DNA of 64,000 bases. Origin: an uncultured beta proteobacterium. Lineage in GTDB: Bacteria > Pseudomonadota > Gammaproteobacteria > Burkholderiales > JAEUMW01. Location of the stretch: assembly GCA_963747225.1 (NCBI GenBank), contig CAVVES010000020.1:34967-98966 (forward strand), written 5' to 3'. Below are positions 9,815 through 36,263 of this stretch, piece after piece; the first letter of the stretch is position 1, and every line of letters starts with the position of its first letter. A program made the translations under genes and the position numbers. A model generated the notes under the pieces. That model was given only the letters and a program-made list of their open reading frames with translations. It was not told where the DNA came from and ran no database searches.

Positions 9815-9864
9815 AGAACGCTGCGCGCGGACCCTCAAGCACTCGCATCAAGCGATCGTCCCCG

Positions 9865-14822: not shown

Positions 14823-14836
14823 TCTGGTTACGCTCC

Positions 14837-15025
14837 TTAATTGTCGGGGGCGGCGCGGGAAGTCTTGCCGTCTTCGCGGCGCGGCGCGTCGTCTTCGTCG
14901 AAGGGAAGCCGGGCCGCCTCGTCGAAGGCACGCTTGCGCTTCTTGCTGAAGGCCCAGAGCACGATGCCGACGAAAAGGACGAACATGATCACCGTCATCG
15001 CGGCACGAACATCCGTGGTGTCCAT
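14837..15025 (-). CDS. ccoQ: cbb3-type cytochrome c oxidase subunit IV
   Basis: This is the 62-aa tail of track ORF 14837..15448 (MDTTDVRAAMTVIMFVLFVGIVLWAFSKKRK..). It is a single-TM protein located between ccoO and ccoP. Confidence 0.8.
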   Translation of the reverse strand: MDTTDVRAAMTVIMFVLFVGIVLWAFSKKRKRAFDEAARLPFDEDDAPRREDGKTSRAAPDN

Positions 15026-15027
15026 CG

Positions 15028-15645
15028 TCACTTCGTTCCCTTGAGGGCGGTGCCGAGGCCCTGCAGATACGCGATCAGCGCATCGAGCTCGCTCTTGCCC
15101 GCCACCGCCGCGGTGGCTCCGTTGATCTCTTCGTCCGTGTAGGGCACTCCCACGAACCGCAGCGCTCTCATCTTCGCAGGCAGATCCTTGCCGTCGACGG
15201 CGGTCTGCGCGAGCCACGGGTACCCGGGCATGTTCGACTCGGGTACCACATCGCGGGGTTGATTGAAGTGCACCCGGTGCCATTCGTCCGAGTAGCGTCC
15301 TCCCACCCGTGCGAGGTCCGGACCCGTGCGCTTGCTGCCCCACTGGAAGGGGTGGTCGTACACCGACTCGCCCGCCACGGAGAAATGTCCGTAGCGCTCG
15401 GTCTCGGCGCGGAACGGCCGGATCATCTGCGAGTGGCAGGTGTAACACCCTTCGCGAATGTAGACGTCCCGCCCCGCGAGCCGCAGCGGCGGATAAGGCT
15501 TGAGCCCGGCTATCGGCTCCGTGGTGGACTTCTGGAAGAAGAGCGGCACGATTTCCACCAACCCGCCCACCGAAACGACGATCAGGGTCAGCACGACCAG
15601 GAGACCGACGTTTTGCTCGATCTTTTCATGAAAGGTACCGGACAT
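15028..15645 (-). CDS. ccoO: cbb3-type cytochrome c oxidase subunit II (monohaem)
   Basis: This is the 205-aa C-terminal part of track ORF 15028..17034, starting [16 protein letters not shown]. Haem motif CYTCHS. Confidence 0.93.
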
Positions 15646-15662
15646 GGTCACGCTCCTTCCGA

Positions 15663-17099: not shown

Positions 17100-17214
17100 G
17101 GTTCGCTTCTCCTTGACGGTCTGCAATCCTCTCGCACCGAGACGCCCAAGACGCCCAAGACGCCGCATGCCTGCGCGTCTTCGGTCACGCCGATGTTACG
17201 GAAAGACCGGTGCG

Positions 17215-17409
17215 CTACTTTTGATTTACATCAAATCGGTCGGGCTGTAAATTCCGCGACGGCGTCGGCCCGTCTTCATCCATCAGTATCCGGTGTGCCG
17301 GTCCCTCCAGATCTTCGAACTGCCCGCTCTTCAGGGCATACCAAAAGACGACCGCGATCGCCGCCACGAGCACCAGCGAAAGCGGGATCAGAAGATAAAG
17401 TATCTCCAT
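17215..17409 (-). CDS. ccoS: cbb3 oxidase maturation protein CcoS/FixS
   Basis: This is the 64-aa tail of track ORF 17215..17619 (MEILYLLIPLSLVLVAAIAVVFWYALKSGQFEDLEGPAHRIL). Its start overlaps the ccoI stop. Confidence 0.85.
   Translation of the reverse strand: MEILYLLIPLSLVLVAAIAVVFWYALKSGQFEDLEGPAHRILMDEDGPTPSRNLQPDRFDVNQK
17221..17234. promoter_or_regulatory. perfect FNR/Anr box upstream of ccoN
   Basis: TTGATTTACATCAA is a perfect palindrome lying ~128 nt upstream of the ccoN ATG, inside the last codons of ccoS (..FDVNQK*). Confidence 0.8.
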
Positions 17410-22464: not shown

Positions 22465-23520
22465 ATGCTCTATTCGGCGGTACGCCGCGTCCTGTTTTGC
22501 CTCGAACCGGAAACTGCTCACCGCGTCACCCTTGCGGCACTCTCCGGGTTGGTTACCATCGGCTTGCGGCGCCTCGCGGGAGCGCCACCGCCGAGTGTGC
22601 CCCGTCGGGTTATGGGCATCGAATTCCCGAATCCGCTCGGGCTCGCCGCCGGCTTCGACAAGAACGCCGAGTACATCGACCTGATGGGCGCGCTGGGCTT
22701 CGGCTTTCTCGAAGTCGGTACCGTGACTCCCCGCCCTCAACCGGGCAATCCGCCACCCCGCATCTTCCGCATCCCCGAGAAGCACGCCCTCATCAATCGT
22801 CTCGGCTTCAACAATCAGGGTGTCGACGCCTTGCTGCGCAACGTCGAGCGATCCCGCTTCAAGGGCGTGCTCGGAATCAACATCAGCAAGAATTTCGATA
22901 CCCCGATCGAGAGTGCGCACGAGGACTACCTCACCTGCCTGCGGCGGGTCTATGTGCATGCGAGCTATGTCGCGGTGAACATCTCGTCGCCCAATACACC
23001 CGGACTGCGCGACCTGCAAAATGCTGAAGAGCTCGACAAGCTCCTCGGACTACTCAAGAATGAACAACAAGATCTGGCTGCAACCCACGGAAAATACGTG
23101 CCGATCGCGGTGAAGATAGCGCCGGACCTGGAGCCTGAGCAAGTCGAACAGATCGCCACGCTTCTCGTCAGGCACCGAATGGACGGTGTCATCGCAACCA
23201 ACACCACACTTTCGCGCGAGGGGCTGGAACATCTGCCCGTATCGCGGGAAGCGGGTGGCTTGAGCGGCGCTCCCTTGCGGGAGAGGTCGACGGCGGTACT
23301 GCGTCGCTTATCGAAAGTACTTGAAGGAAACGTGCCAATGATCGGCGTAGGCGGGATTTTTTCTGCGCATGATGCGCAGACAAAGCTGGATGCAGGTGCA
23401 AGTCTCGTGCAGGTCTACACCGGCTTCATCTACCGCGGTCCGGCGCTCATACGCGAGGTCGTCGAGGCGGTCGCCCGACAGGGCGAGCTTCCTCCGGTGA
23501 AAGGAAGGCAGTGGTCGTGA
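22465..23520 (+). CDS. pyrD: dihydroorotate dehydrogenase (quinone)
   Basis: 351 aa. GLAAGFDKN...[10 protein letters not shown]...[11 protein letters not shown]...GVGGI. Confidence 0.94.
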
Positions 23521-23552
23521 CACCGACGCACTTCAAAACCCTCCCGCCCTTG

Positions 23553-24239
23553 ATGAAAATTGAAAAGATCGACGGGTTGCTGCCCCAGACCCAGTGCCAG
23601 CGCTGCGGCTTCGGGGGTTGCCGCCCCTACGCCGAAGCCATCGAGGCGGGAGATGCCGACATCAATCAGTGCCCGCCCGGAGGCGTGGAAGGGGTAAGAC
23701 GGCTGGCCCGACTTCTCGGCGTCGAGCCGAAGCCGCTGGACCCATCGCGCGGGGCGCCTCCACCGTCTGCCGTAGCAGTGATCGACGAAAGTGCGTGCAT
23801 CGGATGCGCCCAGTGCCTCGGGCCGTGTCCGGTGGACGCCATCATCGGCGCGCCGCACCAGGTACACACCGTGATAGCTGCCTTGTGCACTGGCTGCGAA
23901 CTCTGCATCGCGCCTTGTCCGGTCGACTGCATCGCCATGAAGGTGGTCCCGGCGCCGGCCGACGAGTCGAAGTGGCAACGGAGAAGGCGCGAGAAGAAGG
24001 CTGCGGATGCTTCGCGCAAACGCCATGCGTTTCACCTTTTCCGGCACGAGCGCGAGGAGCGGGAGCGTGCCGCCATGCACGCGCGGGGAGCGGCTTCAGC
24101 AGGCGGCGGCAGGATCGCGGATCCGCGGCAGGCTGCGGTGCAGGCGGCGCTCGAGCGCGCGAAGGCGAAGCAGCACGCTGCCAGCGGCGACCGGCGTGCT
24201 CCAGACCCGAATGCGCCGGTTCCCGCGGAATCCGAATGA
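23553..24239 (+). CDS. RnfB/RsxB-like ferredoxin (stand-alone)
   Basis: Track ORF 23511..24239; preferred start is [23 protein letters not shown]. Two 4Fe-4S boxes are present: [12 protein letters not shown] and [12 protein letters not shown]. The stop overlaps the nth start (ATGA). Confidence 0.8.
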
Positions 24240-24880
24240 ACGCCGCCAAGCGTCACGCGATCTTCGCGCGCCTGCGGGCGGGGAACCCCGCTCCCGCATC
24301 AGAGCTAGCCTATCAGACTCCGTTCGAACTCCTGATCGCTGTGATCCTTTCGGCGCAGGCGACCGACAAGAGCGTGAATGTCGCGACGGCGGAGCTCTTC
24401 CCCGCCGCCCATACCCCCGAGTCGATGCTGGCCCTGGGCCAAGCCGGACTCGAGTACTACGTGAAGCGCATCGGGCTCTACCGCATGAAGGCGAAACACA
24501 TCATCGAAACCTGCCGGTTGCTCATCGAACGCCACGGCGGGCAGGTGCCCGAGAATCGGGAAGCGCTCGAAACGCTTCCCGGCGTCGGCCGCAAGACCGC
24601 CAACGTGATTCTGAACACGGCGTTCGGTCAGCCCACCATCGCCGTGGACACGCATATTTTCCGCGTGGCAAACCGTACTGGCCTTGCAAAGGGGAAGACC
24701 GTCCTCGAAGTCGAGAAAAAACTCGAGAAGTCCACCCCTCCCGAATTCCGGCACAACGCCCATCACTGGCTCATCCTCCACGGACGCTACGTCTGCGTCG
24801 CCCGTAAACCGAAGTGCCCGAGCTGTCTGATCGAGGATTTGTGCGAGTATCCGAACAAGACCCAAGGAGTGAAAACGTGA
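24236..24880 (+). CDS. nth: endonuclease III
   Basis: This is the 214-aa tail of track ORF 23594..24880. Hh[17 protein letters not shown] and the FeS cluster loop [17 protein letters not shown]. Confidence 0.94.
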
Positions 24881-25007
24881 AGGGGTGAAACTGTGGAAGG
24901 ATGCAACGGTGGGAAGGTGGCTTAAGAAAAAAGCCGTACATCGCTGCTGACTTGACTTCTTCACGCCTTCAGTCATTCACTCGTTCACCCATTCACGCCT
25001 TTTCGCC
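24869..25007. repeat. dyad-symmetric pair of 8-bp-period pentamer arrays (GTGAA-N3 x~7 / N3-TTCAC x~7)
   Basis: Left array: GTGAAAAC GTGAAGGG GTGAAACT GTGGAAGG ATGCAACG GTGGGAAG GTGGCTTA (24869-24924). Right array pentamers at 24952, 60, 68, 76, 84, 92 and 25000: TTGAC TTCAC TTCAG TTCAC TTCAC TTCAC TTTTC. Pentamer pairs are mirror-registered about 24932.5. The spacers are not complementary. Confidence 0.7.
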
Positions 25008-25010
25008 TCC

Positions 25011-25466
25011 ATGTTCTCCCCTTCCCGCGATCAGGCCCGAAAATTCCTGTTCGACGCCTGGGCGAAGTACCGCGCGGGTGCTCCCCTTGAAGGATTGGAA
25101 GCGGTCGCTGTCGGCTTGATCTCCCTCCATTCGGAGTACCAGCCGCTGCTCGAAGATCGGGAACGCAATCTGGATCGGGAGTTCGGCCCAGAGCGGGGCG
25201 GCCTCAATCCGTTTCTCCACCTCTCGCTACATCTCGCGATCGAGGAGCAGCTCGCGATCGATCAGCCTCCGGGCATCCTGTCGCAGTACCAGCGCCTCGC
25301 CGCGCGGCTGGGTGACGAGCACGCGGCAAAGCACATTCTGCTCGAATGTCTCGGGGAGGTCGTCTGGAACGCCCAGCGCAACGCCACGGCGCCGGACGGC
25401 GAAGCTTACCTGCGCTGCATCCAACGTCACCTCGGTGAAAGGGCTGGCGGCTCCGGCAGCGTTTGA
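25011..25466 (+). CDS. DUF1841 family protein
   Basis: 151 aa. RKFLFDAWAKYRAG.PLEGLE...NPFLHLSLHLAIEEQL matches my memory of DUF1841. Confidence 0.75.
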   Translation: MFSPSRDQARKFLFDAWAKYRAGAPLEGLEAVAVGLISLHSEYQPLLEDRERNLDREFGPERGGLNPFLHLSLHLAIEEQLAIDQPPGILSQYQRLAARLGDEHAAKHILLECLGEVVWNAQRNATAPDGEAYLRCIQRHLGERAGGSGSV

Positions 25467-25573
25467 GCGCGGCACGGCAGACGATGCGCTCAACTCAGGC
25501 CGGTGTTCGTAACACCCCGGCCGGGAGGCGATGCTAGAATCCGCGTCCCACGTACTTCCACTTCGTTCGAACG

Positions 25574-26119
25574 ATGGCCGAAACATCCCACTTGAAGTTG
25601 CGCCCGATTCCGGCGCTCATATTCGCCAGCCGCTGGCTGCAGCTACCGCTGTACCTCGGACTGATCGTCGCGCAGTGCGTCTACGTCTGGCAGTTCTGGA
25701 AAGAACTGGTCCATCTGCTGCATATCGCGGCCGAGCGCAACGTCATCAACGAGACCCAGATCATGCTCGTAGTGCTGGGGCTGATCGACGTGGTGATGAT
25801 CGCGAACCTGCTCATCATGGTGATCGTCGGCGGCTACGAGACCTTCGTCTCACGGCTTTACCTGGAGGGGCATCCGGACCAGCCGGAGTGGCTATCGCAC
25901 GTTAACGCGGCGGTGCTCAAGGTGAAGCTCGCCACGGCCATCATCGGCATCTCTTCGATCCATCTGCTCAAGACGTTCATCAACGCGGAGCAGCTATCGC
26001 AGCACGTAATCATGTGGCAGGTCACCATTCACATCACGTTCCTGCTGTCCGCGATCGTGGTCGCCTGGACGGACCGAATCCTGGCGCCTACCCTGAAGGT
26101 CAAGCACGCGGCGCATTAG
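25574..26119 (+). CDS. yqhA: UPF0114 (YqhA) family membrane protein
   Basis: 181 aa. [17 protein letters not shown]...[28 protein letters not shown]. Confidence 0.82.
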
Positions 26120-26153
26120 GTGGTAGGCCGAGGGGATCGACGTACCGCTCCTG

Positions 26154-29100
26154 TCAACGGCCGTTTTCCAGCGTCTCGATCAGGAAGAGGATTTCGGCGG
26201 CCATCGTGTAGTCCAAATCCGGGGCGTCGGCGAGGGTGCGGTCGCGGCTGCCGGCGACGATGGCTTGGAGGGCTTGGATGAAGGGGTGGACGCCACGCGG
26301 CGTCGGGATCGGCGGCGAGTTGCTGGAGGAGGGACGCAGCGGCGGCCGGGTCGCCGGCGAGCAGGGCTTGGGTCACGGCGAGGCAGATGCGGCCATCGGC
26401 GGTGTGGTTCTCGCCGCCGTCGCGGCGGTAGGCGAGGTAGCAGGCGATGGCCTTGCGCTTCGCCTCCGCGGCGGCGGCGGGGTTGCCGGCGTCCGTCTCG
26501 ATGTCGGCGAGGATGGCCCAGGTCTTCCACGGCTCAGACGCGTGGCCGAACTGCGCTTTGCATTCGATCGCCCGGCGGATTTCCTGCCGCGCTTCGTCGA
26601 GGCGGCGGAGCTTGCGCAGGGTGTTGGCGAGATTGTTCCTCGCGCGCCCTTCGTTCGCCACATCGCCGATCTCGACATACTTGTCCGCGGCTTGCCGGTA
26701 GAAGGCCACGGCTTCCTCCGGGCGGTCGAGGACATCGTCATACAAGTTCCCCAGTTGCACTGAGCGTGCTCGCCTGCCCGGCGACATTTCCGAGCCGCAC
26801 CTTGATCGCGAGCGATTTCCGGTAGGCATCCTCCGCCGCTTCCGGCTGTCCCGCCTCCTGATACACCATGCCGGTCTGATGCCAGATCACGGCGACGGTG
26901 CCCGGTTCGTCCAACTGCGTGAACCGCTCGCGCGCTTCGGCATACGCCGCCAGCGCCTCCGGGTAGCGGCGCTGCTCCATGCGGACGGTCCCAAGCTGGC
27001 CTTTGCCGACGGCGACCTCCCGGTCGTCACCGAGTTGCTCGGCGCGGCGGATGCTCTCTTCGTAGGCCGCCGCCGCTTCGTCGAGCCGACCCAGGTCGCG
27101 AAGACAGTCGCCTCGTTCCGCGAAGCAGACGGACGCCATCCCTTCCGCAGCTTTGCTGGCTCGCTCCTTCGCGACGGCCTCGAAGCGCTGGCGGGCCTCG
27201 TCCAGCAGCGGCAAGGCCTGTTCCGAGCCGCCGGCCGTCTTCAACACGCGGGCCAGCAGGCAGCAAGCCATCGCCAGATCGTAATCGGCGTCGGGATACG
27301 CCTGCTCGCCCGCCGCCCGGGCGCGCTGGAGCAACTGCTGCGCGCCGTCCAACGCCTCGCGCAACCGCCCGCCGGCAAGCTGCTGCTCGATGCGGGTCCG
27401 CGCCGCCTCGAACCGCGCGTGATTCCAGGCGTCGCCCAGCGCCGCCGCCGCGGCGTCGCGCACCTGCCCCACGCGCTCCAGCAGCCGCGGCTTGCCGAGC
27501 GAATTGCAGCAGGCTGTAGAGCGAAGTGGCCAGATCGATCGTCGCCTCCGCATCCCCCGCGCGCTGCACGAGGTCGAGCAGCGCAAAGAGGTTCGGCAGC
27601 TCCAGCACCGTCAGCGTCGCCGCGAGTTCGGCGTTCTGGCTCTGCTGCTGCTCGAGGAACCCGACATACCCGCGCATCGCCTCGACCCAGCGGGCCGTCA
27701 GCGCCTCGCGCTCCGCCGCGTCCATCCGCCCGCGCAGGTAGGGGCAGAGCGCGGGATTGAGCGTGAGATGGTTGTAGCGGTTCGGCGTCGCCAGCCCCGT
27801 CTCGATCAACTCGCCCGCCAGCGAGGCCACGTCCGCCTCTTCCCACTCCATCATCACGCGGAGCACGTCCAGATCGACCCCGCCGTGAAACACCCCGAGC
27901 ACGCGCGCCCTGTCCCGGTTCGCGGGCGACATGCGGCGCAGCGAAAGCTCGACGCTGGCGAAGACCGATTGCTCCCGGCTGCCGGGGAACTTCCGCTCCA
28001 TCTCCGCCATCAGCTCGACGAGCGATTCGCGGGTCGCCTCGACGCCGCGGCTGCGCAGCGCCGGGGCCAGCAGCGCCAGCGTGCGGGCGTGGCCGTGGAC
28101 GGCATCCACGAGCTGCTCGATCTCCTCGCGCGCGGCATCGGCGGCGGCGCCGGCGTCCGCCGCCGTCGGCGTTCAGCACGCGCTCGACCAGCTTCACCGC
28201 GTCCTCGCGGTCGAGCCGGTGCAGCTCGCGCCGGTGCCGCTCGGCATCGAACGGCGCGGGCAGCGCCTCGCGGCTGGTGAAGACGAGCCGCGTGTCGCCC
28301 TTCGCATGCAGCCGCGCGCAGAGCTGCGAGGATGGCGTCCAGCTCGCGGCGCGCCTCCTCGGAGAGCGCCTCCGGCGTCTCGCACGATAGGGCGGCAGGA
28401 GGATGCTCTCCATGTTGTCCACCACCAGCAGCGTGGACTGCTCGGCAGCGCGCGCTCGACGGGCAGGATGGCCTTTTCCAGATCGTCGAACGTGGCGACG
28501 GAGTAATCCGTCGCACGAGCTGGCGGCCGATGGCATCGAGCACCGCGGCGGCGTTGCTGTGCGTCTCGACGGAGACGAACGCGGCGCGGCGCATCTGCTG
28601 CGAGCGGACCATCCAGCGCGCAAACTCGGCGGCGAGCGCGGTCTTGCCTTCGCCGCCCTGGCCGCGCACCACGGCGTAGCGCTCGTGGCGCAGCAGCCGC
28701 TGCAGCGCGAGCAGCTCGCGGCTGCGGCCGATGAAGCCGGTCTCCGGCTCCGGCGGCAGTTCGCCGAGGCGCGCCGCGAGCGCGGTCTTGCAAGTCCTCC
28801 TGCGTCTGCTGCGCGGGCGTGGTGCGGAAGAGCTGCGGGTCGTCCTTTTCCTGGAAGAGCACGGGCACGAACCAATCCTCCAGCCGCAGCTCGCCCGCGC
28901 CGAAGATGCGGCCGCGGAAGGTGTCGTCCTTGAGCTGGCGCTGGCCTGCGAGCATGGCATCGCCCACGCGCTGCGCCGCGGGCCAGCGCGTCGTAGAACG
29001 CCTCGACGAAGCGGCGCGCGGTCTCGACCAGCACGCTGTGGCTCATGGCCACGACCGAGGCCACGCCGACCTTCAGCAGCTCGGAGGCGACGGACTCGGA

Positions 29101-30543
29101 CGCCTTCTCGGCCTGCGCGGTCTGGCAGGCTTCGAGGAAGACGAGCGGGATGCGGTGATCGCGCAGCAGCGGGCCGAGTTCGCTGGTGAAGACGGTGACG
29201 TGCCGGCGCTGGTCGAGCTTGCCGATGTCCTGCGGGTCCTCGAAGCACAGCCCGCCGAGGCCGACGCGTGCGGTCATAGACGCCGTGGCCGTCGAAGTGG
29301 ACGACGTGATAGGGCTCGCGCTCGCGCGCGGGCGCGGTCGAGCTCCTCGCGCAGGGCCGGCAGCGTGGGCGGGCTGAGGACGTGGATGCTGCACCAGGCC
29401 GCCGAGCGTCTTCCATCGCCTCGACCAGCGGCAGCGCGCTCGCGCGGTGGTCGATGTAGCCGCACGCGTCGTCCTCCGGCCGCGCGGTGACGAGCAGGAT
29501 GCGGATGGGCGTGGCGACCACCGGCACGTCGAGCACTCGCGTGTTCGGCAGGCGGCGGCGGACGCGCGTGGGCTTCGCGCCCTGGAACAGGTAGCCGTCG
29601 CCGTCGTGGAGCAGTTCCCACGGCAGGCCGAGCAGGAGCGTGGCGGCTTCGCGGGCGGTCGTCGACCTCGGCCTCGGCGGCGCCGGCTTCGAGCGACGCA
29701 TCGACGTGGACGGAGAAACGGCGCCCGGCGTGGTCGTCGATCCGCGCCCAGGCGTTCATGACGTTCGCCGTGTGGGCGACGGGCATCGCGGCCTCGTGCA
29801 GGAGCCGCCCCCACTTCACGAGGTTCTCCTCGACCTTGCGCGCGCGGTCCCGGAAGTAGTCGCTCGGCCAGATGGCGTACTTCTCCAGGTACCAGCGCAG
29901 CTCCTCGGCCTCGATCGGACCGATGGGAGCGATGAAGCGCCAGCTCTGCGCGCTGGCGACTTCGCGCTGCCCCGGCGTGGCCGGCTCGTAGACGAGCCGG
30001 GCGCGAGCCGAGGCGCGGCGCACGCCGTCCTGCTCGTGGAACTTGAAGTCGGTGAGTTCGAGCACGAGCTCTTCCAGCGGCTCGGCCTTGGGCTGCGGCG
30101 TGGGAGCAACATCGGCGGGGAGCGCGTTTGCCCAGGGCGACGAGGATCGCATTCATCGCCGCTTCGACGCCGCCCGCGTCGCTGCTCACCGGGATGTAGA
30201 TCGGCTCCTCGCCGAAGAACTCTTCGAGCACGCCGAGCTTCGTGCCGTTCGAGCGAGAGCGGGATGACCGGGAACTTGTCCTTGCCGCGCTGCTTCTGCA
30301 CCTCGAGCGCGTGGCGCAGTTCCTTGCCGACCCACTTCGACTGCAACGACATCCGGGCTGACGACGACGGCGTAGGCCGACGCTTCCTCGATGGCTTTCT
30401 GGATCTCCGGCCAGAGCGGATCGCCGCCGCGCAGCTCGCGCGAATCGATCCAGCCGTCCTGCCCGTGATCGGCGAGCGCCGCGCGGAGATCGCGCACGAA
30501 CGCGTCGTCCTGTCGAGCTGTGGGAGATGAAGAGTCTGGTCAT
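26154..30543 (-). pseudogene. TIR - CHAT protease - STAND/P-loop NTPase - TPR protein (~1,460 codons), reading frame broken ~18 times
   Basis: Stitched from track ORFs 27241..30543, 30186..30497, 29816..30580, 29274..30152, 28010..29701, 28194..28967, 27027..28109, 26738..27586 and 26116..26829, plus an unlisted tail ending ..ILFLIETLENGR* at 26154. Motifs: FISHSS / SKWVGKEL (TIR), LGLPWELL, HFDGHG, FLEACQT (CHAT), GQGGEGKT and LLVVDNME (P-loop), and multiple TPR units. Confidence 0.75.
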
Positions 30544-30570
30544 CGCGGCCCTGCCGGTACCACTCTAACC

Positions 30571-30590
30571 GTGAAAGCAAGGACTTTCAC
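30571..30590. promoter_or_regulatory. inverted repeat upstream of the TIR-CHAT-STAND gene; possible operator
   Basis: GTGAAAG-CAAGGA-CTTTCAC is a perfect 7-bp inverted repeat, 28 nt upstream of the ATG at 30543. Confidence 0.3.
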
Positions 30591-30694
30591 CCACGCGTTG
30601 CGCGTGCGATCAACTCGCAGGGACGGTGCCGCCAACAAAAACCGTGAACGCCTCGCTGATGACTGTTTGGTGCGGACCGCAGTAGCGCCGGAGG

Positions 30695-31027
30695 CTACTC
30701 CATCCGCGGCGCCTTCTTCACGAAGAGCCCGCTCTGGCTCGAAAAGAATGCCGCCAGATCTGCCATATCCTGGTCGGTCAGACTCGCAGCCTGCGGCGCC
30801 ATGATCGCGTTCTTGCGCGCCCCGCTCTTGTAGTCTTTCAGGGCTTTCACGATGTAGTCCGGCTGCTGGCCGGCAAGGCGGGGGAAATCCGGCACAGCGC
30901 TGTTGCCGTCGGCGCCATGACACGCCGCGCAGGGGGTGGACTTCTGCTTGCCGGCTTCGACGCTGCCGGCAAATGCGGGCAGCGCGAAAAAGGCAAGAGC
31001 TGCCACCGCGGCGATGGATTTCAGCAT
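30695..31027 (-). CDS. class I monohaem cytochrome c (c4/c553-like half)
   Basis: This is the 110-aa tail of track ORF 30695..31291 (MLKSIAAVAALAFFALPAFA..). Haem motif CAACHG and DQDMADLAAFF. Confidence 0.85.
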   Translation of the reverse strand: MLKSIAAVAALAFFALPAFAGSVEAGKQKSTPCAACHGADGNSAVPDFPRLAGQQPDYIVKALKDYKSGARKNAIMAPQAASLTDQDMADLAAFFSSQSGLFVKKAPRME

Positions 31028-31047
31028 GCTCACACTCTTCTTGGAGT

Positions 31048-31404
31048 TCACTTCGCGGCGGCGCTCGTCGGGGCGCCTGCGGGTGTGGAGTAGAAGGCGG
31101 CCAGATCCGCCATGTCCTGGTCCGACAGACTCGCCGCGATCGCCGCCATTGTGGGATGCCAGCGCTCGCCACTCTTGTAGGCCTGCAGCGCCTTCACGAT
31201 ATAGGCGGCGTGCTGACCGCCGATCTTGGGCACCGAGTACACCGCGGGAAACGCCGTGCGGTAGTCCGGTATGCCGTGGCATCCCTGGCACATCGAATCC
31301 TTGAGCTTGCCCGCCGCCGCGTTGCCGTCGGCTGCTGCGCCCGGCGTCGGAGTACAGAGGACAGAGGTGAGGAGCACAGCGGTCACTGCGAAGCGCACGA
31401 TCAT
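31048..31404 (-). CDS. class I monohaem cytochrome c (c4/c553-like half)
   Basis: 118 aa with a signal peptide. Haem motif CQGCHG and DQDMADLAAFY. It is a paralogue of the gene at 30695..31027. Confidence 0.85.
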   Translation of the reverse strand: MIVRFAVTAVLLTSVLCTPTPGAAADGNAAAGKLKDSMCQGCHGIPDYRTAFPAVYSVPKIGGQHAAYIVKALQAYKSGERWHPTMAAIAASLSDQDMADLAAFYSTPAGAPTSAAAK

Positions 31405-31506
31405 TCTCTCTGCAAGTTTGCGTCGGTTTCCAGCGGCCGGACTTTATCGGAAGCGGCGGTCATGGTCAACGGAGCGGCCGCGCCCACACCGGCCGAAACC
31501 CCTATA

Positions 31507-32148
31507 ATGCGCGTTTTTTGTGCGAATCCCGTGCTTTGCGCCGAAAATCTCGCCTGCTCGCGGGGCGACAGACTCGTCTTCTCGGGCGTCGGATTCGATG
31601 TTGAGCCGGGGCAGGCGCTCGTGGTCACAGGAGCCAACGGTAGCGGCAAGACGAGCCTGCTGCGGATCGTGTGCGGCCTGCTCGAACCCGCCGCGGGAGA
31701 GATCCGCTGGGACGGCACGAAGACGCGAAGACTCGGCGAAGAATACTTCGCGCGGCTCGGTTACGTCGGCCATCTGAACGGCCTCAAGGACGATCTGACC
31801 CCGGCGGAGAACCTTCGAACCGCGACTGGCATGTCGGGCGCGCCTGCGGACGAAGGCGCGGCAAGAACGGCGCTGCGGCGCCTCGGCATCGAAGGTCAGG
31901 CCGACCTGCCGGTGCGGTGGCTGTCGCAGGGTCAGAAGCGCCGTGCAGCGCTAGCCCGTCTGCTGGTCGCGCAGCGCTCACTATGGGTGCTCGACGAGCC
32001 CTTCACAGCCCTCGACCGGGAGTCGACCGCGACGGTGGAAGCGCTGCTGCAGGAGCATCTCGAAGGCGGCGGCCTGGCTCTGCTCGCAACCCATCAGGAC
32101 TTGCACGGCGTGCGCGCGCCCGTCCTCCGCCTCGGCCTCGGGGCTTGA
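31507..32148 (+). CDS. ccmA: haem exporter ATP-binding protein CcmA
   Basis: This is the 213-aa tail of track ORF 30973..32148. Walker A GANGSGKTS, signature LSQGQKRR, Walker B LWVLDEP. Confidence 0.9.
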   Translation: MRVFCANPVLCAENLACSRGDRLVFSGVGFDVEPGQALVVTGANGSGKTSLLRIVCGLLEPAAGEIRWDGTKTRRLGEEYFARLGYVGHLNGLKDDLTPAENLRTATGMSGAPADEGAARTALRRLGIEGQADLPVRWLSQGQKRRAALARLLVAQRSLWVLDEPFTALDRESTATVEALLQEHLEGGGLALLATHQDLHGVRAPVLRLGLGA

Positions 32149-32157
32149 GAAGCGGCG

Positions 32158-32826
32158 ATGGGCTCAGCGCTCGCATGGATCATTCGTCGCGATCTCGTTC
32201 TCGCGCTGCGCCAGCGTACCGATGTGACGACCACTCTCATTTTCTTCGTCATCGTGGTGAGCCTTTTTCCTCTCGGCGTCGGGCCGGAGATGGAGAAGCT
32301 GCGGCCGCTCGCACCAGGGGTGCTGTGGGTCGCCGCCCTGCTCGCCTCGATGCTCTCCCTCGGGCGACTCTTCGCGAGCGACTACGCAGACGGCACGCTG
32401 GAACAGATGCTGATCGCGCCGCAGCCGCTCTCCCTTGTGGTGCTCGGCAAGATCATCGCTCACTGGCTCGCGTCCGGCTTGCCGCTCGTGCTCATCGCAC
32501 CCGTGCTCGCGATCCAGTACGACCTCACCGGCGAGCCGCTGCTGGTGCTGCTCGCGGCGCTGCTCATCGGCACACCTGTATTGTCGGCGATCGGTGCGAT
32601 CGGCGCCGCGCTCACGCTCGGCCTGCGCGGTGGGGGCGTGCTGATTGCCCTACTGGTGCTGCCGCTCTACGTGCCGGTCGTGATCTTCGGCGCCGGTGCG
32701 GTCGATGCCAGCGTGTCCGGCCTCGACCCGGTTGGACACCTTTCGCTGCTTGCGGCGTTCCTTCTCCTGTCTCTGGTGGTCGGGCCGGTCGCTTCCGCCA
32801 CTGCCCTTAGAATCTCCGTAGAATGA
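32158..32826 (+). CDS. ccmB: haem exporter membrane protein CcmB
   Basis: 222-aa polytopic ORF in the ccm order. DYADGTLEQMLIAP. Confidence 0.9.
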   Translation: MGSALAWIIRRDLVLALRQRTDVTTTLIFFVIVVSLFPLGVGPEMEKLRPLAPGVLWVAALLASMLSLGRLFASDYADGTLEQMLIAPQPLSLVVLGKIIAHWLASGLPLVLIAPVLAIQYDLTGEPLLVLLAALLIGTPVLSAIGAIGAALTLGLRGGGVLIALLVLPLYVPVVIFGAGAVDASVSGLDPVGHLSLLAAFLLLSLVVGPVASATALRISVE

Positions 32827-32851
32827 AGCGGCCAGGATCGTCGCAATTCTT

Positions 32852-33604
32852 ATGTCGAGCACCACAATCAGCTGGTTCAAGTACGCCTCCCCAGCGAGCT
32901 TCTACGGCCTCGCTGGAAAGCTCGTTCCGTGGTTCGCGCTCGGCGCTGCCATGCTCTTCGCGGCCGGCCTGTACACGGGTTTCTTGGTCGCCCCCACGGA
33001 CTTTCAGCAGGGCGAGTCGTACCGGATCATCTTCATTCACGTGCCGGCCGCCTGGATGTCCATGTTCCTGTATCTGCTGATGGCAGCCTACGCGGCCCTC
33101 GGATTCATCCTCAACGCACGGCTTTCCGCGATGATGGCGCAGGCGATCGCGCCCACCGGCGCTCTCTTCACCTTCATAGCACTTTGGACCGGCGCGCTCT
33201 GGGGACGACCCACCTGGGGCACTTACTGGGTGTGGGACGCGCGGCTCACGTCGGAGCTGATCCTGCTCTTCCTCTATCTCGGCTTCATGGCGCTGCAGGC
33301 CGCGATCGAGGACCCGCGTCGGGCCGATCGCGCGGGCGCCGTGCTGGCGATCGTCGGCGCCATCAACGTCCCGATCATCTATTTCTCCGTGCAGTGGTGG
33401 AACACGCTGCACCAGGGCGCGTCGGTGAGCCTCACGCAGTCGCCGACGATGGCGACGGTCATGCTCCGGGGAATGCTGCTGATGGCGTTTGCCTGTTGGT
33501 TCTATGCGACCGCCGTGATCCTCACACGGGTGCGCGTCATCATTCTCGAAAGGGAGCAGGCGAGGCCCTGGCTGGCCGAACGGGCGGACCGGGAGCACGC
33601 ATGA
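32852..33604 (+). CDS. ccmC: haem exporter protein CcmC
   Basis: 250 aa with the WWD-type motif [12 protein letters not shown]. Confidence 0.92.
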
Positions 33605-33783: not shown

Positions 33784-34226
33784 AACCCCGGCATAGACGC
33801 TTCGCCCTGATCGGGGCCGGACTTTGCGCGCTGGCGATCGCGACTGCGCTCGTCCTCAACGCCTTCCGCTCGAACCTCGTGTTCTTCTTCACGCCGAGCC
33901 AGGTCGCTGCGCAGGAAGCGCCAGTGGGGCGTACATTCCGCATCGGCGGCATGGTGGAAGCGGGCAGCCTGCGGCGCGAGCCGGACGGACTCACGGTCCA
34001 CTTCACCATCACCGACACGGCGCAGGCGATCCCCGTGGTATACAGGGGAATCCTCCCCGATCTCTTCAAGGAAGGGAAAGGTGTCGTCGCCCAGGGCAGG
34101 CTTGCTCCAGACGGGCAATTCACTGCCAGCGAAGTGCTCGCGAAGCACGACGAAAACTACATGCCGCCGGAAGCCGCCCACGCGATGGAGCAGGCGAAGA
34201 AGGCGCAGCGGACGCTGGTCCGATAG
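33780..34226 (+). CDS. ccmE: cytochrome c maturation haem chaperone CcmE
   Basis: This is the 148-aa tail of track ORF 33657..34226. [11 protein letters not shown]...[17 protein letters not shown] overlap with ccmD. Confidence 0.92.
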
Positions 34227-34247
34227 CGCGTCAGCCAAGGAGTCGAG

Positions 34248-36263
34248 ATGGTCCCAGAAATCGGTCAGTTCGCCTTGATCCTCGCGTTGCTGCTCGCCGT
34301 CGCGCAGGCCGCGGTGCCCCTCGCGGGGGCGGCGTGCGGCGTGCGCTCGTGGATGGTGTCGGCACGCTCGCTCGCGCAGGGCCAGTTCGTGTTCGTCGCG
34401 ATCGCGTTCGGCTGTCTTGCCTGGTCATTCGTGCATAGCGACTTCTCCGTGCTCAATGTCGCGACCAACTCCAACTCGAAGCTGCCTCTGCCCTATCGCT
34501 TTGCGGCGACCTGGGGTTCGCACGAAGGCTCGCTTCTGCTGTGGACGCTGATGCTCACCGTCTGGACGGTGGCAGTGACGGTCTTCAGCCGGCACCTGCC
34601 TTTGGAAATGGTGGCGCGGGTGCTGGCGGTGATGGGATTCGTGAGTGTCGGTTTCCTGCTCTTCATGCTCCTCACCTCGAATCCGTTCGAGCGGCTCATT
34701 CCCGCCCCCGAGGAAGGCCGGGATCTGAATCCCCTGCTGCAGGACCCGGGCATGGTCATTCATCCGCCCATGCTGTACATGGGATACGTCGGCTTTTCGG
34801 TCGCGTTCTCCTTCGCGCTCGCGGCACTCCTGTCGGGTCGGCTCGATGCGACGTGGGCGCGCTGGTCACGGCCGTGGACGACGATCGCCTGGACGTTTCT
34901 CACCATCGGCATCATGCTCGGCAGCGCATGGGCCTACTACGAGCTCGGCTGGGGCGGATGGTGGTTCTGGGACCCGGTGGAGAACGCCTCGTTCATGCCG
35001 TGGCTGGTCGGCACCGCCCTCATTCATTCTCTCGCGGTGACTGAGAAACGCGGCAGCTTCAAGAGCTGGACCGTGCTCCTCGCGATAGCAGCGTTCTCGC
35101 TGTCGCTCCTCGGCACGTTCCTCGTCCGCTCCGGCGTGCTCACCTCGGTCCACGCCTTCGCCACCGATCCCCGACGCGGCGTCTTCATCCTCGCGTTCCT
35201 GTCCATCGTGATCGGCGGCTCGCTTCTGCTCTACGCGTGGCGCGCGCCGAAGGTCGGACTCGGCGGCAGCTTCGCCATCGTTTCGCGCGAATCGATGCTG
35301 CTCGCGAACAACGTGCTGCTCGTGGTGGCAGCCGGCACCGTCCTGCTCGGGACGCTTTATCCGCTGATCGTGGATGCCCTCAACCTCGGCAAGATTTCGG
35401 TCGGACCGCCCTACTTCAACGCCGTATTCGTGCCGTTGATGGTGCCGGCGGTGTTTCTCATGGGTGTCGGACCGATCGCGCGCTGGAAGAGCGCGCGCAT
35501 TCCCGCGCTCGCCGTGCGGCTGCGCTGGGCTTTCGGTGCAGGTGTCGTCGCGGCATTGATTCTGCCGTTCGTGCTGGGAACGTGGACCCCGCTCATCGCG
35601 CTCGGATTTCTGCTCGCCTTCTGGGTCATCGGGGCGGTGGTCACCTCGATCGCCTTCGGCACTCAGGAAGGGGCCGCTACCCAGAGCATCTGGCGCCGCA
35701 TGTCGAAGCATTCGCGCAGCACCTGGGGCATGCATCTCGCGCATTTCGGTATCGCCGTGTTCATCATCGGCGTGACCATGGTCGGCGGATTCCAGACCGA
35801 GAAAGACGTGAAGATGGAGCCCGGGGCGACGACCACCGTCGGCGGTTACACCTTCCGCTTCGATGGAATCGAAACGCGCGACGGTCCCAACTATCGTGCG
35901 GCGCGCGGCACGGTGACCGTGTTGAAGAACAATCGCGCCATTGCCGTCATGCATCCGGAAAAGCGGCGCTACAACGCATCCGGCATGGCCATGACCGAAG
36001 CCGCGATCGACACCGGTCTCGCGCGCGATCTCTATGTCTCTCTCGGAGAACCGGTGGGCGACAACGCGTGGATCGTGCGCGTCTATCACAAGCCGTTCGT
36101 GGACTGGATCTGGGGCGGCTGCGTGCTCATGGCCCTCGGCGGACTGCTCGCGGTCACCGACCGCCGGTACCGATTCGCAGTAAAGGCGAAACCTCACACT
36201 GTGCCGACAGCACCACCGGCGCCCGTCCCCACGCCTCTTGCGCCGGAGGCGAAGCGATCGTGA
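34248..36263 (+). CDS. ccmF: cytochrome c haem lyase subunit CcmF
   Basis: 671-aa polytopic protein with the WWD motif WGGWWFWDPVENAS. Confidence 0.94.
   Translation: MVPEIGQFALILALLLAVAQAAVPLAGAACGVRSWMVSARSLAQGQFVFVAIAFGCLAWSFVHSDFSVLNVATNSNSKLPLPYRFAATWGSHEGSLLLWTLMLTVWTVAVTVFSRHLPLEMVARVLAVMGFVSVGFLLFMLLTSNPFERLIPAPEEGRDLNPLLQDPGMVIHPPMLYMGYVGFSVAFSFALAALLSGRLDATWARWSRPWTTIAWTFLTIGIMLGSAWAYYELGWGGWWFWDPVENASFMPWLVGTALIHSLAVTEKRGSFKSWTVLLAIAAFSLSLLGTFLVRSGVLTSVHAFATDPRRGVFILAFLSIVIGGSLLLYAWRAPKVGLGGSFAIVSRESMLLANNVLLVVAAGTVLLGTLYPLIVDALNLGKISVGPPYFNAVFVPLMVPAVFLMGVGPIARWKSARIPALAVRLRWAFGAGVVAALILPFVLGTWTPLIALGFLLAFWVIGAVVTSIAFGTQEGAATQSIWRRMSKHSRSTWGMHLAHFGIAVFIIGVTMVGGFQTEKDVKMEPGATTTVGGYTFRFDGIETRDGPNYRAARGTVTVLKNNRAIAVMHPEKRRYNASGMAMTEAAIDTGLARDLYVSLGEPVGDNAWIVRVYHKPFVDWIWGGCVLMALGGLLAVTDRRYRFAVKAKPHTVPTAPPAPVPTPLAPEAKRS

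Follow-up and report, generated by a model that had tools for sequence, protein, structure and literature searches.

The 64,000-nucleotide stretch of DNA analyzed here (the window) carries a copy of a gene family, the TIR-CHAT genes, that is real, very widespread and putatively of immune type. The copy itself most likely arose in assembly, by the blending of several alleles that are nearly identical, and its 19 frame breaks very probably are non-biological. The joint best explanation, to which a probability of roughly 0.7 is assigned, is that the window copy consists of blended alleles of a real gene and that this gene specifies an NLR-type TIR/CHAT switch. According to the evidence, the frameshifts in the window cannot be used as biology, and nor can the precise allele. 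The point of interest instead is the gene family, which is covered by no named defense system.

The reading extends on the minus strand from an ATG at 30543 to a TGA at 26156-26154 and comprises ~1,457 codons once repaired. The stop lies 35 nt from the end of yqhA, and the cytochrome c gene ends ~150 nt upstream of the start. The window contains no partner gene for the TIR-CHAT gene, in agreement with the stand-alone gene described in the initial annotation, and the GC content of the gene (0.708) is higher than that of the remaining window (0.643), as also had been proposed. No empty site, in which the locus lacks the gene, was found. A 1,100-amino acid open reading frame at 27241-30543 in the mechanical ORF list was rejected as a protein because it is in the wrong frame beyond codon 10. 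The principal features are:

25574-26119, plus strand: intact yqhA/UPF0114 gene, convergent with the TIR-CHAT gene and one boundary of the insertion (Pfam PF03350 in contig L007, described below)
26154-30543, minus strand: whole TIR-CHAT-NB-ARC-TPR reading, 4,390 nt, not divisible by three, with 19 frame-breaking indels
30130-30543, minus strand: TIR domain, residues 1-137 (Pfam TIR_2)
29639-30092, minus strand: N-terminal extension of the protease module, β-sheet plus helical, residues 150-300 (AlphaFold model)
28839-29638, minus strand: CHAT caspase-like protease, residues 301-565 (Pfam CHAT), with His413 at codon 29299-29297 and Cys470 at codon 29127-29125
28131-28747, minus strand: STAND NTPase, NBD-HD1, residues 596-800 (invariant motifs and fold)
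27500-28130, minus strand: winged-helix domain plus helical domain 2, both part of the NB-ARC-type module, residues 801-1010 (same model and folds as the NBD)
26157-27499, minus strand: TPR region, the presumed sensor, residues 1011-1457 (Pfam TPR_12, TPR_8, TPR_1 and TPR_2)
30695-31027, minus strand: intact cytochrome c gene, 110 amino acids, the other boundary of the insertion

The four modules that the initial annotation had recognized, in the order TIR, CHAT, STAND NTPase and TPR, were borne out in the stitched protein by Pfam (TIR_2, CHAT, TPR_12) and by the fold of the NTPase. The motifs MTRLFISHSS (30543), LGLPWELLHDG (29632), RILLVTARPEDD (29503) and the C-terminal ILFLIETLENGR (26192-26157) were located where they had been placed, as were the CHAT His and Cys, Walker A (GQGGEGKT, 28663-28640; Lys codon 28645-28643) and Walker B (LLVVDNME, 28431-28408; Asp codon 28419-28417). 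The TIR Glu, the CHAT His and Cys and both Walker motifs are invariant in the clade and near-invariant in relatives that are 33-85% identical.

TIR_2 matched the stitched protein with 75.2 bits (Pfam cut-off 28). Sequence matches for this domain in the PDB were AbTIR, Cat1 and SPARTA TIRs, and its model superposed on AbTir (7uxu) with a TM score of 0.79 and an rmsd of 2.9 Å. All 112 close members have the putative catalytic residue Glu74 (codon 30322-30320, motif SKWVGKEL), as do 42 of 43 diverse members. No Pfam family was found for the extension at residues 150-300, which is modeled with strands at 155-203 and helices at 208-265 and 289-304 at pLDDT values mostly of 80-95. TIR-less relatives start at ~residue 150, and the alignment with distant cyanobacterial CHAT-STAND proteins begins at ~residue 200. 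The CHAT domain scored 74.1 bits (cut-off 24), and Foldseek matched its model to SAVED-CHAT (8tl0), Csx29 (8eey), separase, DdvA, gingipain, CED-3 and caspase-9. Close members show no variation at its His and Cys, which occur in 42/43 and 38/43 diverse members, respectively; replacement of the Cys in five of these relatives counts against the proposed NLR-type switch.

The P-loop NTPase proposed by the initial annotation stood in part. Every Pfam P-loop family remained under its cut-off on the stitched protein (AAA_16, 25.0 against 32.6; NACHT, 21.0 against 26.7; NB-ARC, 18.6 against 23.5), and the identity of the module therefore derives from the invariant Walker A and B motifs and the fold. 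A TSRE sensor motif lies at ~28278-28267. The NB-ARC-like character was upheld by the NTPase model (pLDDT 92.4), the top folds for which were Apaf-1 (3shf, 1z6t), CED-4 and the plant NLRs NRC2/3/4, ZAR1, Sr35, Roq1 and RPP1. TPR_12 matched with 78.2 bits (cut-off 30.1), and PDB sequence matches for this region were LGN/Pins TPRs. Conservation of the TPR region equals that of the other modules (0.69-0.87 per 30-residue bin), unlike the fast evolution that typifies immune sensors.

The initial annotation treated the locus as one reading, a real gene that might have decayed and whose frames had to be repaired. Instead, frameshift-aware alignment to the intact homologue P0001 revealed 19 frame-breaking events, comprising 16 insertions of one nucleotide, two deletions of one nucleotide and one insertion of two nucleotides, as well as an in-frame gap, and the evidence favors a collapsed consensus of multiple alleles. 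The events, all on the minus strand, are:

30513, 30350, 30250, 30123, 29663, 29410, 29388 and 29327: +1 insertions
29266, 28980, 28787, 28327, 28158, 27503, 26761 and 26295: further +1 insertions
28512 and 28447: -1 deletions
28385: +2 insertion
near 28682: in-frame gap of three codons

The repaired reading contains no stops and is 87% identical to P0001 at the amino acid level. The 19 breaks fall within a 4.4-kb gene, compared to ~0 across the other 59.6 kb. A homology-free HMM of codon-position GC content detected 13 same-strand frame switches that lack a stop codon within 150 nt; every one of them falls within 26125-30512. Of the 24 same-strand switches outside the locus, 23 are ordinary gene ends, with a stop no more than ~70 nt away, the exception being a switch at 42914 for which the nearest stop is 112 nt distant. 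The indels are isolated inserted bases that mainly are not in homopolymers; this insertion-dominated, non-homopolymer pattern differs from the classical Nanopore error type, which speaks against collapse. They coincide with allele-variable sites (local variability 0.278 compared to 0.160; the observed value was attained in 0 of 20,000 permutations), a test that is inflated as aligners tend to push gaps toward variable columns. The dN/dS of the window copy against intact alleles is ~0.3, the same as among intact alleles, and the branch that leads to the window copy has 55 synonymous and 26 non-synonymous private changes. Thus, selection is not relaxed.

Comparison with a near-identical genome, represented by a short-read contig (L006) and a 94-kb contig (L007), delimited the anomaly. 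Both flanks and the termini of the reading are 100% identical to the window, whereas ~11% of positions differ inside it. The insertion with its identical junctions also is present in that genome, where it holds a different allele. The identical segments of the gene are:

26154-26172, minus strand: 3′ terminus of the reading, base-identical to the L007 allele, with divergence from 26173 on
30527-30694, minus strand: 5′ terminus and upstream intergenic region, base-identical to L007 and L006, with divergence inside the reading below ~30527

Identity to L006 is 100% from the cytochrome c gene through 33157. The five insertions that L006 overlaps are all missing from it, and it is open across the 368 codons recovered; L007 has two to three frame breaks of its own.

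The window copy has two private nucleotides in 4,372 sites compared to 18-174 in real alleles, although no real allele comes closer to it than 89.7% identity in DNA. Its identity to the leave-one-out DNA consensus is 94.3%, compared to ≤91.3% for other alleles, and it is the nearest neighbor of 14 of 28 alleles; this DNA set is less biased, as it came from a genome scan whose seeds were peptide motifs of the window itself. At the protein level the window copy is 94% identical to the consensus and members are 79-89% identical, in a set that consists of the window's best hits and hence is biased. An ancestral-like, slowly evolving genuine allele likewise would resemble the centroid. Among 81 loci, multi-frame copies occurred in 19/21 long-read but only 7/60 short-read assemblies (Fisher p = 7e-11). 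Other heavily broken long-read copies also are centroid-like, among them L074, with six private nucleotides and 15 insertion columns; L074 is the window's closest sequence (93.4%), and only one insertion column is common to the two. Six MAGs of sample MFD00032 have the gene, which indicates that alleles co-occur, and MFD MAGs are Nanopore assemblies (PMC12313526). A few short-read copies (L026, L060, L082) are multi-frame. These and the breaks in L007 indicate that some of the breaks seen in the family are not artefacts.

A collapsed consensus would explain the 19 frameshifts. A betaproteobacterium-like host would hold one copy of a widespread gene of ~1,460 codons between yqhA and the cytochrome c/ccm cluster, and only the two ends of the gene in the window would be the organism's own. 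The interior (~26173-30527) would be a blend of several community alleles, 80-90% identical, produced in a long-read metagenome assembly through recruitment to the shared gene of reads, or of polishing data, that stem from other genomes. Blending would have yielded a centroid-like sequence with ~19 spurious indels where alleles disagree. The organism's real gene most likely would be intact and carry an L006/L007-like allele.

Other origins of the broken sequence fare less well. Replacement of the interior by a foreign, ancestral-like allele through gene conversion, with the indels as ordinary sequencing errors, is unlikely. It accommodates identity breakpoints inside the reading at both ends, as expected if the gene were the only homology, and would produce the same interior-only divergence and identical junctions as collapse. 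Moreover, the family clearly moves among genomes, and a 50%-identical member occupies the same yqhA-adjacent site in a related betaproteobacterium (L083). However, conversion leaves unexplained why errors are restricted to the reading and to allele-variable sites; a real allele ~10% from its nearest relative should have tens of private bases rather than two, and an independent broken long-read copy reaches the same centroid. A genuine pseudogene, inactivated in this lineage before 19 real frameshifts accrued, is very improbable. In its favor, the protein cannot be translated from the sequence in its present form, and real inactivations exist elsewhere, namely IS insertions (L041, L045, L061) and the multi-frame short-read copies. 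Bacterial gene decay is deletion-biased, but here 16 of 19 events are insertions and the ratio of indels to private substitutions is ~1:4. In-frame stops are absent, non-synonymous private changes are not in excess, private bases number only two, the near-identical genome is open at the same junctions, and breaks follow the assembly technology. Recoding or phase variation finds nothing in its favor beyond the many +1 shifts. These are not in slippery or repeat sequences, do not occur in any intact short-read allele, and share zero to one columns between broken copies; as shift positions are not conserved, programmed frame changes effectively are refuted.

Beyond the window copy, more than 2,000 full-length relatives are 75-88% identical at the amino acid level across at least eight phyla, cross-phylum dS is unsaturated (0.4-0.65), and neither conserved flanks nor mobility genes were found around family copies. 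These data support horizontal acquisition without mobility genes, which the initial annotation had suggested. Its view of a one-gene island between core genes calls for a qualification, as the L006/L007 junctions, the L083 neighbor, and synteny within Competibacteraceae and within Nitrosomonas indicate stable inheritance within lineages after transfer. In long-resident copies dN/dS is as low as 0.07-0.1. The phyletic distribution is patchy, with the family mostly in uncultured soil, water and sludge bacteria. Neighbors of some copies include RM, Mrr, AbiJ, toxin-antitoxin and Fic genes; many copies, including those in the window and L004, are outside defense islands, an observation at odds with an immune role. 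In three to four genomes the gene is broken by IS insertions that arose independently. Such disruption is frequent for costly or toxic genes. As the initial annotation had anticipated, the protein is assignable to no named system: PADLOC produced domain-level TIR and TPR matches but no system model for the NTPase or the whole protein, which also counts against immunity, and NCBIfam gave nothing above cut-off.

The gene product likely is an NLR-like NADase/protease activated by oligomerization, as inferred from Pfam matches above cut-off (TIR_2, CHAT, TPR), invariant catalytic residues, and confident models with the folds of the AbTir NADase, SAVED-CHAT/Csx29/separase, and Apaf-1/CED-4/plant NLRs. 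In NLRs and apoptosomes, TIR and caspase domains are activated through oligomerization. The TPR region of this single-polypeptide switch would bind a trigger, upon which the Apaf-1-like NB-ARC NTPase would exchange nucleotide and oligomerize. The oligomer would gather N-terminal TIRs so that they jointly form a composite NADase site, which would deplete NAD+ or produce a cADPR-type signal, and would gather the CHAT domains so that the protease is switched on by proximity, like caspase-9 on the apoptosome. The protease might be a second effector, might release the TIR, or might be activated by the TIR product, as precedented in type IV Thoeris where TIR is coupled to caspase (Rousset et al., 10.1101/2024.10.24.620036). 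The infected or stressed cell then would arrest growth or die.

It is possible, if doubtful, that the family is a conserved cellular regulator, for example of stress- or density-triggered programmed death or of proteolytic signaling, that responds to a host-derived or universal cue and not to a virus. The uniformly high conservation, including that of the TPR region, the low dN/dS and retained synteny, the copies outside defense islands, and the existence of non-immune CHAT proteins (HetF and the anti-sigma factor DdvA) are in keeping with this role. The patchy distribution and cross-phylum transfer, RM, Abi and TA genes near some copies, and IS knock-outs are not, and the combination of TIR, caspase and NB-ARC is a hallmark of immunity and cell death (PMC8195603).

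An immune-type switch fits the NLR/Avs-like conflict-system logic put forward by the initial annotation. The closest structural counterparts of the NTPase core are Apaf-1 and CED-4. There, as in the family, an AP-ATPase is paired with a protease of caspase fold, and the mechanism expected for the family is likewise activation by proximity within an oligomer. In the family the two are fused, as in other bacterial variants (PMC13581612). The sensor is TPR rather than a WD40 β-propeller, an extra N-terminal TIR precedes the protease, which belongs to the CHAT type (SAVED-CHAT/Csx29/separase-like), and there is no CARD adaptor. Plant TIR-NLR resistosomes (RPP1, Roq1; TIR-NB-ARC-LRR) likewise combine an N-terminal TIR with a catalytic Glu, an NB-ARC-fold NTPase and C-terminal repeats, and activation of the TIR NADase by oligomerization is a natural model. 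However, the family has a 430-residue CHAT module between TIR and NB-ARC, TPR repeats in place of LRR, and is a bacterial, horizontally spread gene. Avs/AVAST proteins (Avs1-5 and the families of PMC13581612) share the single-gene effector-NTPase-TPR-like sensor architecture and abortive-infection logic, and some have TIR or protease effectors, but no PADLOC Avs model matches the protein, the top 50 NTPase fold matches include the Apaf-1/NB-ARC clade but no Avs structure, and the family has two tandem enzymatic effectors and an unusually conserved sensor. Type IV Thoeris places a TIR and a caspase-family protease in one immune pathway and is a tested case of a caspase-like protease turned on by a TIR product, but it is a two-gene operon with diffusible N7-cADPR and no STAND NTPase or TPR, in contrast to one fused NLR-like protein of 1,460 residues. 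SAVED-CHAT and Csx29 of Craspase are the best structural matches of the protease including its extension, at only 11-19% sequence identity. Both are activated by assembly or ligand, and Csx29 also is a TPR-CHAT protein, but the activator is cyclic oligoadenylate or target RNA-bound Cas7-11 and not a fused NTPase. The general class that holds the family is that of the predicted AP-ATPase, TPR and caspase/TIR conflict systems (Kaur et al., 2021; PMC8195603), the plasmid-borne relatives among which are ≤30% identical to the protein. Whereas those systems mostly are multi-gene, with EAD/Death-like adaptor domains, and occur in cyanobacteria and actinomycetes, the TIR-CHAT family is a compact single gene free of adaptor domains that is 75-88% conserved across phyla.

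The gene in the window is a protein-like reading on the minus strand that runs from an ATG at 30543 to a TGA at 26156-26154 and uses all three frames. The features of the locus are as follows.

25574-26119, plus strand: yqhA, intact, its end 35 nt from the stop codon of the gene
26120-30694: maximum extent of the insert, whose sole content is the ORF
26154-30543, minus strand: TIR-CHAT-NB-ARC-TPR gene, with frame breaks
27241-30543, minus strand: mechanically listed ORF of 1,100 aa, with the true ATG but in the wrong frame after codon 10
30695-31027, minus strand: cytochrome c gene, intact, ending ~150 nt upstream of the start of the gene

Frameshift-aware alignment with the closest intact homologue, the 1,460-aa P0001, placed 19 frame-breaking events (16 of +1, two of -1 and one of +2) alongside one in-frame gap of three codons. 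The repaired reading comprises 1,457 codons with no stops and is 87% identical to P0001. The motif coordinates in the initial annotation were all correct, and the gene is more GC-rich than its flanks as had been noted there, with a GC content of 0.708 for the locus versus 0.643 in the remaining window. It is solely the 72% GC content that keeps the 1,100-aa ORF free of stops, and this ORF thus is a trap for gene callers.

The frame breaks also were detected without homology by a six-frame HMM of codon-position GC that was run over the 64 kb in place of a sliding-window GC3 plot, which was too noisy. Thirteen same-strand frame switches were located within 26125-30512, 12 of which had no stop codon inside 150 nt. 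Outside the locus, 23 of 24 same-strand switches were accompanied by a stop within about 70 nt and therefore are ordinary gene boundaries. The sole outside switch whose nearest upstream-frame stop was more than 100 nt away (112 nt), at ~42914 on the plus strand, may mark either a normal gene boundary or one frameshift.

The initial annotation had proposed that the frames be repaired. Of the marks of a pseudogene, neither in-frame stops nor relaxed selection was found: dN/dS for the repaired gene against intact alleles was ~0.30, which is the value among the intact alleles themselves, and the changes private to the window branch comprised 55 synonymous and 26 non-synonymous substitutions with an N/S ratio below that of the intact branches. 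The frame breaks very probably are not the product of decay. Isolated single bases (A, C, G or T) were inserted, mostly away from homopolymers, and they tend to occur at sites that vary among alleles. Local variability at the breaks was 0.278 versus 0.160, a value that was reached in none of 20,000 permutations, although aligners favor the placement of gaps in variable columns. Programmed frameshifting was rejected because the positions of the breaks are unconserved between copies, as was hypermutation of the DGR type because the changes are indels and not A-directed substitutions.

The relationship of the window gene to other alleles was assessed at the DNA level with 28 intact alleles from the genome scan and homologue contigs, a set which was not ranked by similarity to the window, although the scan was seeded with peptide motifs of the window. 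In this set the window gene has two private nucleotides in 4,372 sites compared to 18-174 in real alleles, although the nearest real allele is only 89.7% identical. The window gene is the nearest neighbor for 14 of the 28 alleles, and its leave-one-out consensus identity is 94.3% whereas all others are ≤91.3%. The same pattern emerged at the protein level in a biased set: identity to the consensus was 94% for the window and 79-89% for the members, with two private residues compared to a median of 22. The interior of the window gene appears to be a centroid rather than a real allele, and recruitment of data from other alleles is the most economical reading of this pattern. Reads or data from the alleles of other genomes would be recruited to the shared 4.4-kb gene at the consensus or polishing stage and would overwrite the native interior, with indels arising where the recruited alleles disagree.

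Two contigs from a near-identical genome, the short-read L006 and the 94-kb L007, bear another allele at the same junctions. Between ~30600 and 33157, a stretch that spans cytochrome c genes, ccmA, ccmB and ccmC, L006 and the window are 100% identical. Inside the ORF, L006 is ~11% divergent, lacks all five of the insertions that it overlaps, and remains open for 368 codons up to the end of the contig. The allele in L007 is that of L006 (99.6%), and the flanks of L007 diverge from the window by 0-0.2% at 25000-26000 and 30500-33000. The identity breakpoints between the window and L007 fall within the ORF, with the 3′ end identical up to 26172 and the 5′ end identical down to ~30527. Thus, the insertion junctions are shared and the interior alone differs. 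Real gene conversion within the ORF would yield the same identity breakpoints as the blending of a consensus, but accounts for neither the density of errors, nor their bias to variable sites, nor the shortage of private bases. The gene observed is real, and the copy in the window is best explained as a corrupted, collapsed multi-allele consensus. Elsewhere, at 23500-25000 and 34000-35000 (the rnfB/nth region and ccmF), stretches of 0% and 3-20% divergence between the window and L007 alternate, with many gaps. The related short-read contig L008 matches the window at 99.84% over 24580-25812, and L007 therefore seems to be the noisy assembly there. In both assemblies, good stretches are interspersed with poor ones.

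Among 81 loci, multi-frame copies were present in 19 of 21 long-read assemblies versus seven of 60 short-read assemblies (Fisher p = 7e-11), where the long-read class denotes Flye-style "contig_N" names and np2-np3, and frames were counted by tblastn. The MFD MAGs derive from deep Nanopore metagenomes (PMC12313526). In short-read controls the gene was free of HMM breaks and a single break lay in a flank (L063); the HMM is insensitive at low host GC and underestimates in-gene breaks at such loci, for which reason the comparison relied on frames counted by tblastn. Heavily broken long-read copies are centroid-like too, with six private nucleotides and 15 insertion columns in L074 and 13 private nucleotides in L075, whereas those with few breaks (L007, L069, L034 and L078) resemble real alleles with 88-168 private nucleotides. 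L074, from a different MAG, is the closest sequence to the window (93.4%) and has one insertion column in common with it. The gene is present in six MAGs of sample MFD00032, and several alleles therefore co-occur in one community. Separately, a 4.6-kb segment just downstream of the gene in L065 (14784-19360), a 4.36-Mb long-read contig of Thermoanaerobaculia, contains 16 stop-less frame switches and may be another community-shared gene with consensus collapse.

The domain content proposed in the initial annotation was borne out by Pfam for the TIR, CHAT and TPR modules, and by motifs and fold for the NTPase. The Pfam results were as follows.

TIR_2 (PF13676): 75.2 bits, cut-off 28, above
CHAT (PF12770): 74.1 bits, cut-off 24, above
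TPR families: above their cut-offs
NB-ARC (PF00931): 18.6 bits, cut-off 23.5, below
NACHT (PF05729): 21.0 bits, cut-off 26.7, below

None of the P-loop families AAA_16, AAA_22, NACHT, nSTAND3 and NB-ARC reached its Pfam cut-off, and sequence relatives in the PDB matched the TIR and TPR parts only. An AlphaFold2 model of residues 1-600 had a pLDDT of 84.8 and a pTM of 0.82. Residues 1-137 of the model match AbTir and the SPARTA and Cat1 TIRs (AbTir 7uxu, TM 0.79, rmsd 2.9 Å), and residues ~150-565 match SAVED-CHAT, Csx29, separase, DdvA and caspases. The stretch from 150 to 300 is a β-sheet and helical extension of the protease module which is kept in relatives that lack the TIR. The NTPase core was modeled separately (residues 580-1045, pLDDT 92.4). 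Its top 30 Foldseek matches are Apaf-1, CED-4, NRC, ZAR1, Sr35, Roq1 and RPP1 (E 1e-10 to 1e-7), with MalT and a TPR-STAND protein lower in the ranking and NOD2 at rank 49; Avs structures were absent from the top 50. The modeled NTPase is an NBD-HD1-WHD-HD2 assembly closest to the NB-ARC modules of Apaf-1, CED-4 and plant NLRs.

The candidate catalytic residues are strongly conserved. Glu74 of the TIR (in SKWVGKEL) does not vary among 112 members, and 42 of 43 diverse members have it as well. His413 and Cys470 of the CHAT module are invariant in the clade and occur in 42 and 38 of the 43 diverse relatives, respectively. The NTPase sequences GQGGEGKT, LLVVDNME and TSRE, which match the Walker A (GxxxxGK[ST]), Walker B (hhhhD) and TxR-type sensor-1 patterns, also are invariant in the clade, and the Walker A Lys and Walker B Asp are found in all 43 diverse relatives. 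Among relatives with identities as low as 33%, the catalytic residues and the TSR motif show almost no variation. The N-terminal module is a TIR-fold domain with a conserved, predicted catalytic Glu and is a putative NADase, and the second module is a predicted cysteine protease of CHAT/caspase fold with a His-Cys dyad.

The family is large and widely dispersed. A word-indexed search returned 2,224 matches with E-values of 1e-10 or better, and the top 120 all measure 1,395-1,882 aa at 77-86% identity. A scan with one genome per species recovered 78 loci, most of them 75-88% identical and a few 50-63% identical, from Acidobacteriota, Planctomycetota, Verrucomicrobiota, Chloroflexota, Nitrospirota, Myxococcota, Cyanobacteria, and Gamma- and Betaproteobacteria. 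Among the carriers are the isolate Nitrosomonas oligotropha Nm45, whose copy (L032) is intact, and contigs of Mb scale (the 7.49-Mb chromosome L034, L065, and L078 of 3.55 Mb), and mis-binning therefore cannot explain the spread. The copy in L004 is flanked by PSCyt, PSD1 and DUF1501 genes that are typical of planctomycetes. An exhaustive search of 50%-cluster representatives with residues 1-1150 as query yielded 1,232 representatives at E 1e-30 or better overall, among them TIR-less variants and dozens of further clusters at 37-56% identity with the same TIR-CHAT-NTPase-TPR order.

The horizontal transfer suggested in the initial annotation stands in view of this identity across phyla, a cross-phylum dS of only 0.39-0.65, and unshared flanks. 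Flanking DNA is shared within lineages only, namely by four Competibacteraceae species, by two Nitrosomonas and by L004 with L030; across phyla no sequence sharing was detected beyond the ORF, nor were terminal repeats or companion genes conserved across lineages. The low-GC copies in Nitrosomonas are ameliorated (GC3 0.56) and saturated (dS ~2) with a dN/dS of ~0.1. In the family as a whole dN/dS is 0.07-0.36 (median 0.24), and conservation is even along the protein, TPR region included. Sequenced plasmids and phages contained no close relative, only CHAT-STAND proteins at ≤30% identity. Designation as a mobile element or genomic island was rejected because no integrase or transposase, terminal repeats or flanks travel with the gene. 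The copies in L062 and L064, contigs of one Methylococcaceae MAG, are 78% and 76% identical to the query, respectively, and may be paralogues in one genome or reflect a strain mixture.

The surroundings of the gene vary. Neighbors in L002 include Eco57I RM, Mrr and AbiJ genes and those in L005 include ParE, VapBC, Fic, a ResIII endonuclease and a methylase; the copies in L004, L007 and the window are located among housekeeping genes. A metagenome scan with yqhA for an empty site recovered 80 loci at 62-84% identity, none with ccm/DUF1841 synteny and none with a TIR-CHAT gene. The interval between yqhA and ccm was rejected as a defense hotspot in general, as the syntenic betaproteobacterial MAG contig L083 has a sugar ABC transporter and recQ there. 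In L083 the 118 codons at the 3′ end of yqhA occur twice (15232-15585 and 17413-17952) with recQ (15218-17365) between the fragment and the full gene, and its TIR-CHAT homologue is only 50% identical to that in the window. In other contigs the gene is interrupted by IS elements from three families or, in one case, by a 1.5-kb low-GC insert.

L045, 13949-15506: IS5-like DDE_Tnp_1 inside the gene
L061, 11312-13824: IS1595 and another DDE inside the gene
L041, 2655-3967: ISAZ013 inside the gene
L017, 11990-13510: 1.5-kb insert inside the gene, GC 0.40, containing a 406-aa ORF without a Pfam match

These interruptions are genuine knock-outs in some genomes. Downstream of the intact copy in the Competibacteraceae MAG contig L010 are a TumE-toxin-like ORF and an isolated second copy of the last 42 codons of the gene (14714-15187 and 15801-15926), suggesting that the 3′ end underwent an insertion or rearrangement in the past. 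In the separate contigs L005 and L013, the stop codon is followed immediately, in the first ~100 nt, by a tandem array of a 7-nt repeat.

The protein fuses in one bacterial polypeptide three hallmarks of eukaryotic innate immunity and cell death, namely a putative TIR NADase, a predicted caspase-fold protease and an Apaf-1/NB-ARC-like switch. The apoptosome and the TNL resistosome are activated by oligomerization. By analogy with such precedents and from domain homology, the protein would function as an NLR-type switch and would offer a compact model for an NLR-type oligomer that coordinates two different effectors, with a bearing on the bacterial ancestry of apoptosome and TNL logic. Within the fusion, TIR and CHAT might act in sequence in cis, for example with a TIR product or oligomer engaging the protease. 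The cross-phylum conservation, which extends even to the TPR sensor, contrasts with the usual arms-race picture and points to one highly conserved trigger that might be a universal phage or host cue. Such a trigger could be identified by phage-gene screens of the kind now used for Avs proteins, and a cultured carrier exists. For assembly, a gene shared horizontally can silently be converted into a chimeric "consensus allele" with frameshifts in long-read MAGs; loci collapsed in this way would wrongly be counted as pseudogenes, and their alleles are unsuitable for evolutionary inference. The abundance and near-identity of the gene across co-occurring genomes might suffice to corrupt long-read metagenome assemblies systematically. 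It is a rather doubtful proposition that all of these elements hold together, such that the clade is a self-sufficient, single-gene hybrid of TIR resistosome and caspase apoptosome that spread recently as a bare ORF through at least eight phyla at a retained protein identity of 75-88%, responds to one conserved trigger, deploys TIR and CHAT sequentially in cis, and systematically corrupts long-read assemblies.

Comparison with named systems places the gene among proteins of known type. PADLOC-DB 2.0 (2023) gave no Avs HMM match for the NTPase or the whole protein, only domain-level TIR and TPR matches and one weak PDC-S27 match (E 0.005), and NCBIfam gave nothing above cut-off. Assignment as a bNACHT was rejected as NACHT scored below its cut-off and the fold is closer to NB-ARC than to NOD2. 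Conflict systems that combine AP-ATPase, TPR, caspase and TIR modules have been predicted (PMC8195603), bacterial Apaf-1 orthologues with a fused caspase-like protease have been described (PMC13581612), and a survey of TIR signaling explicitly left out the TIRs of Avs-type and stand-alone proteins (10.64898/2025.12.03.692087). The literature searched contained no experimental study of the fused TIR-CHAT-NB-ARC-TPR architecture, phage protection included. No partner gene is adjacent in the window. In L001, a separate 124-aa TIR_2 gene (9630-10004) upstream overlaps the start of the intact large gene by 4 bp and could be an accessory or decoy TIR; a small upstream gene of this type is absent from the window. 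TIR-to-caspase signaling is established in type IV Thoeris (10.1101/2024.10.24.620036), a two-gene operon in which the TIR (ThsB) and the caspase-like effector (ThsE) are separate and N7-cADPR is the signal that switches on the protease, whereas the gene studied here encodes both domains, an NTPase and TPRs as a single protein. The gene belongs to the known class of NLR-like STAND conflict proteins as an uncharacterized variant that is distinguished by the fusion of two effectors, TIR and CHAT, to a core like that of Apaf-1 and a TPR sensor, and by notable cross-phylum conservation.
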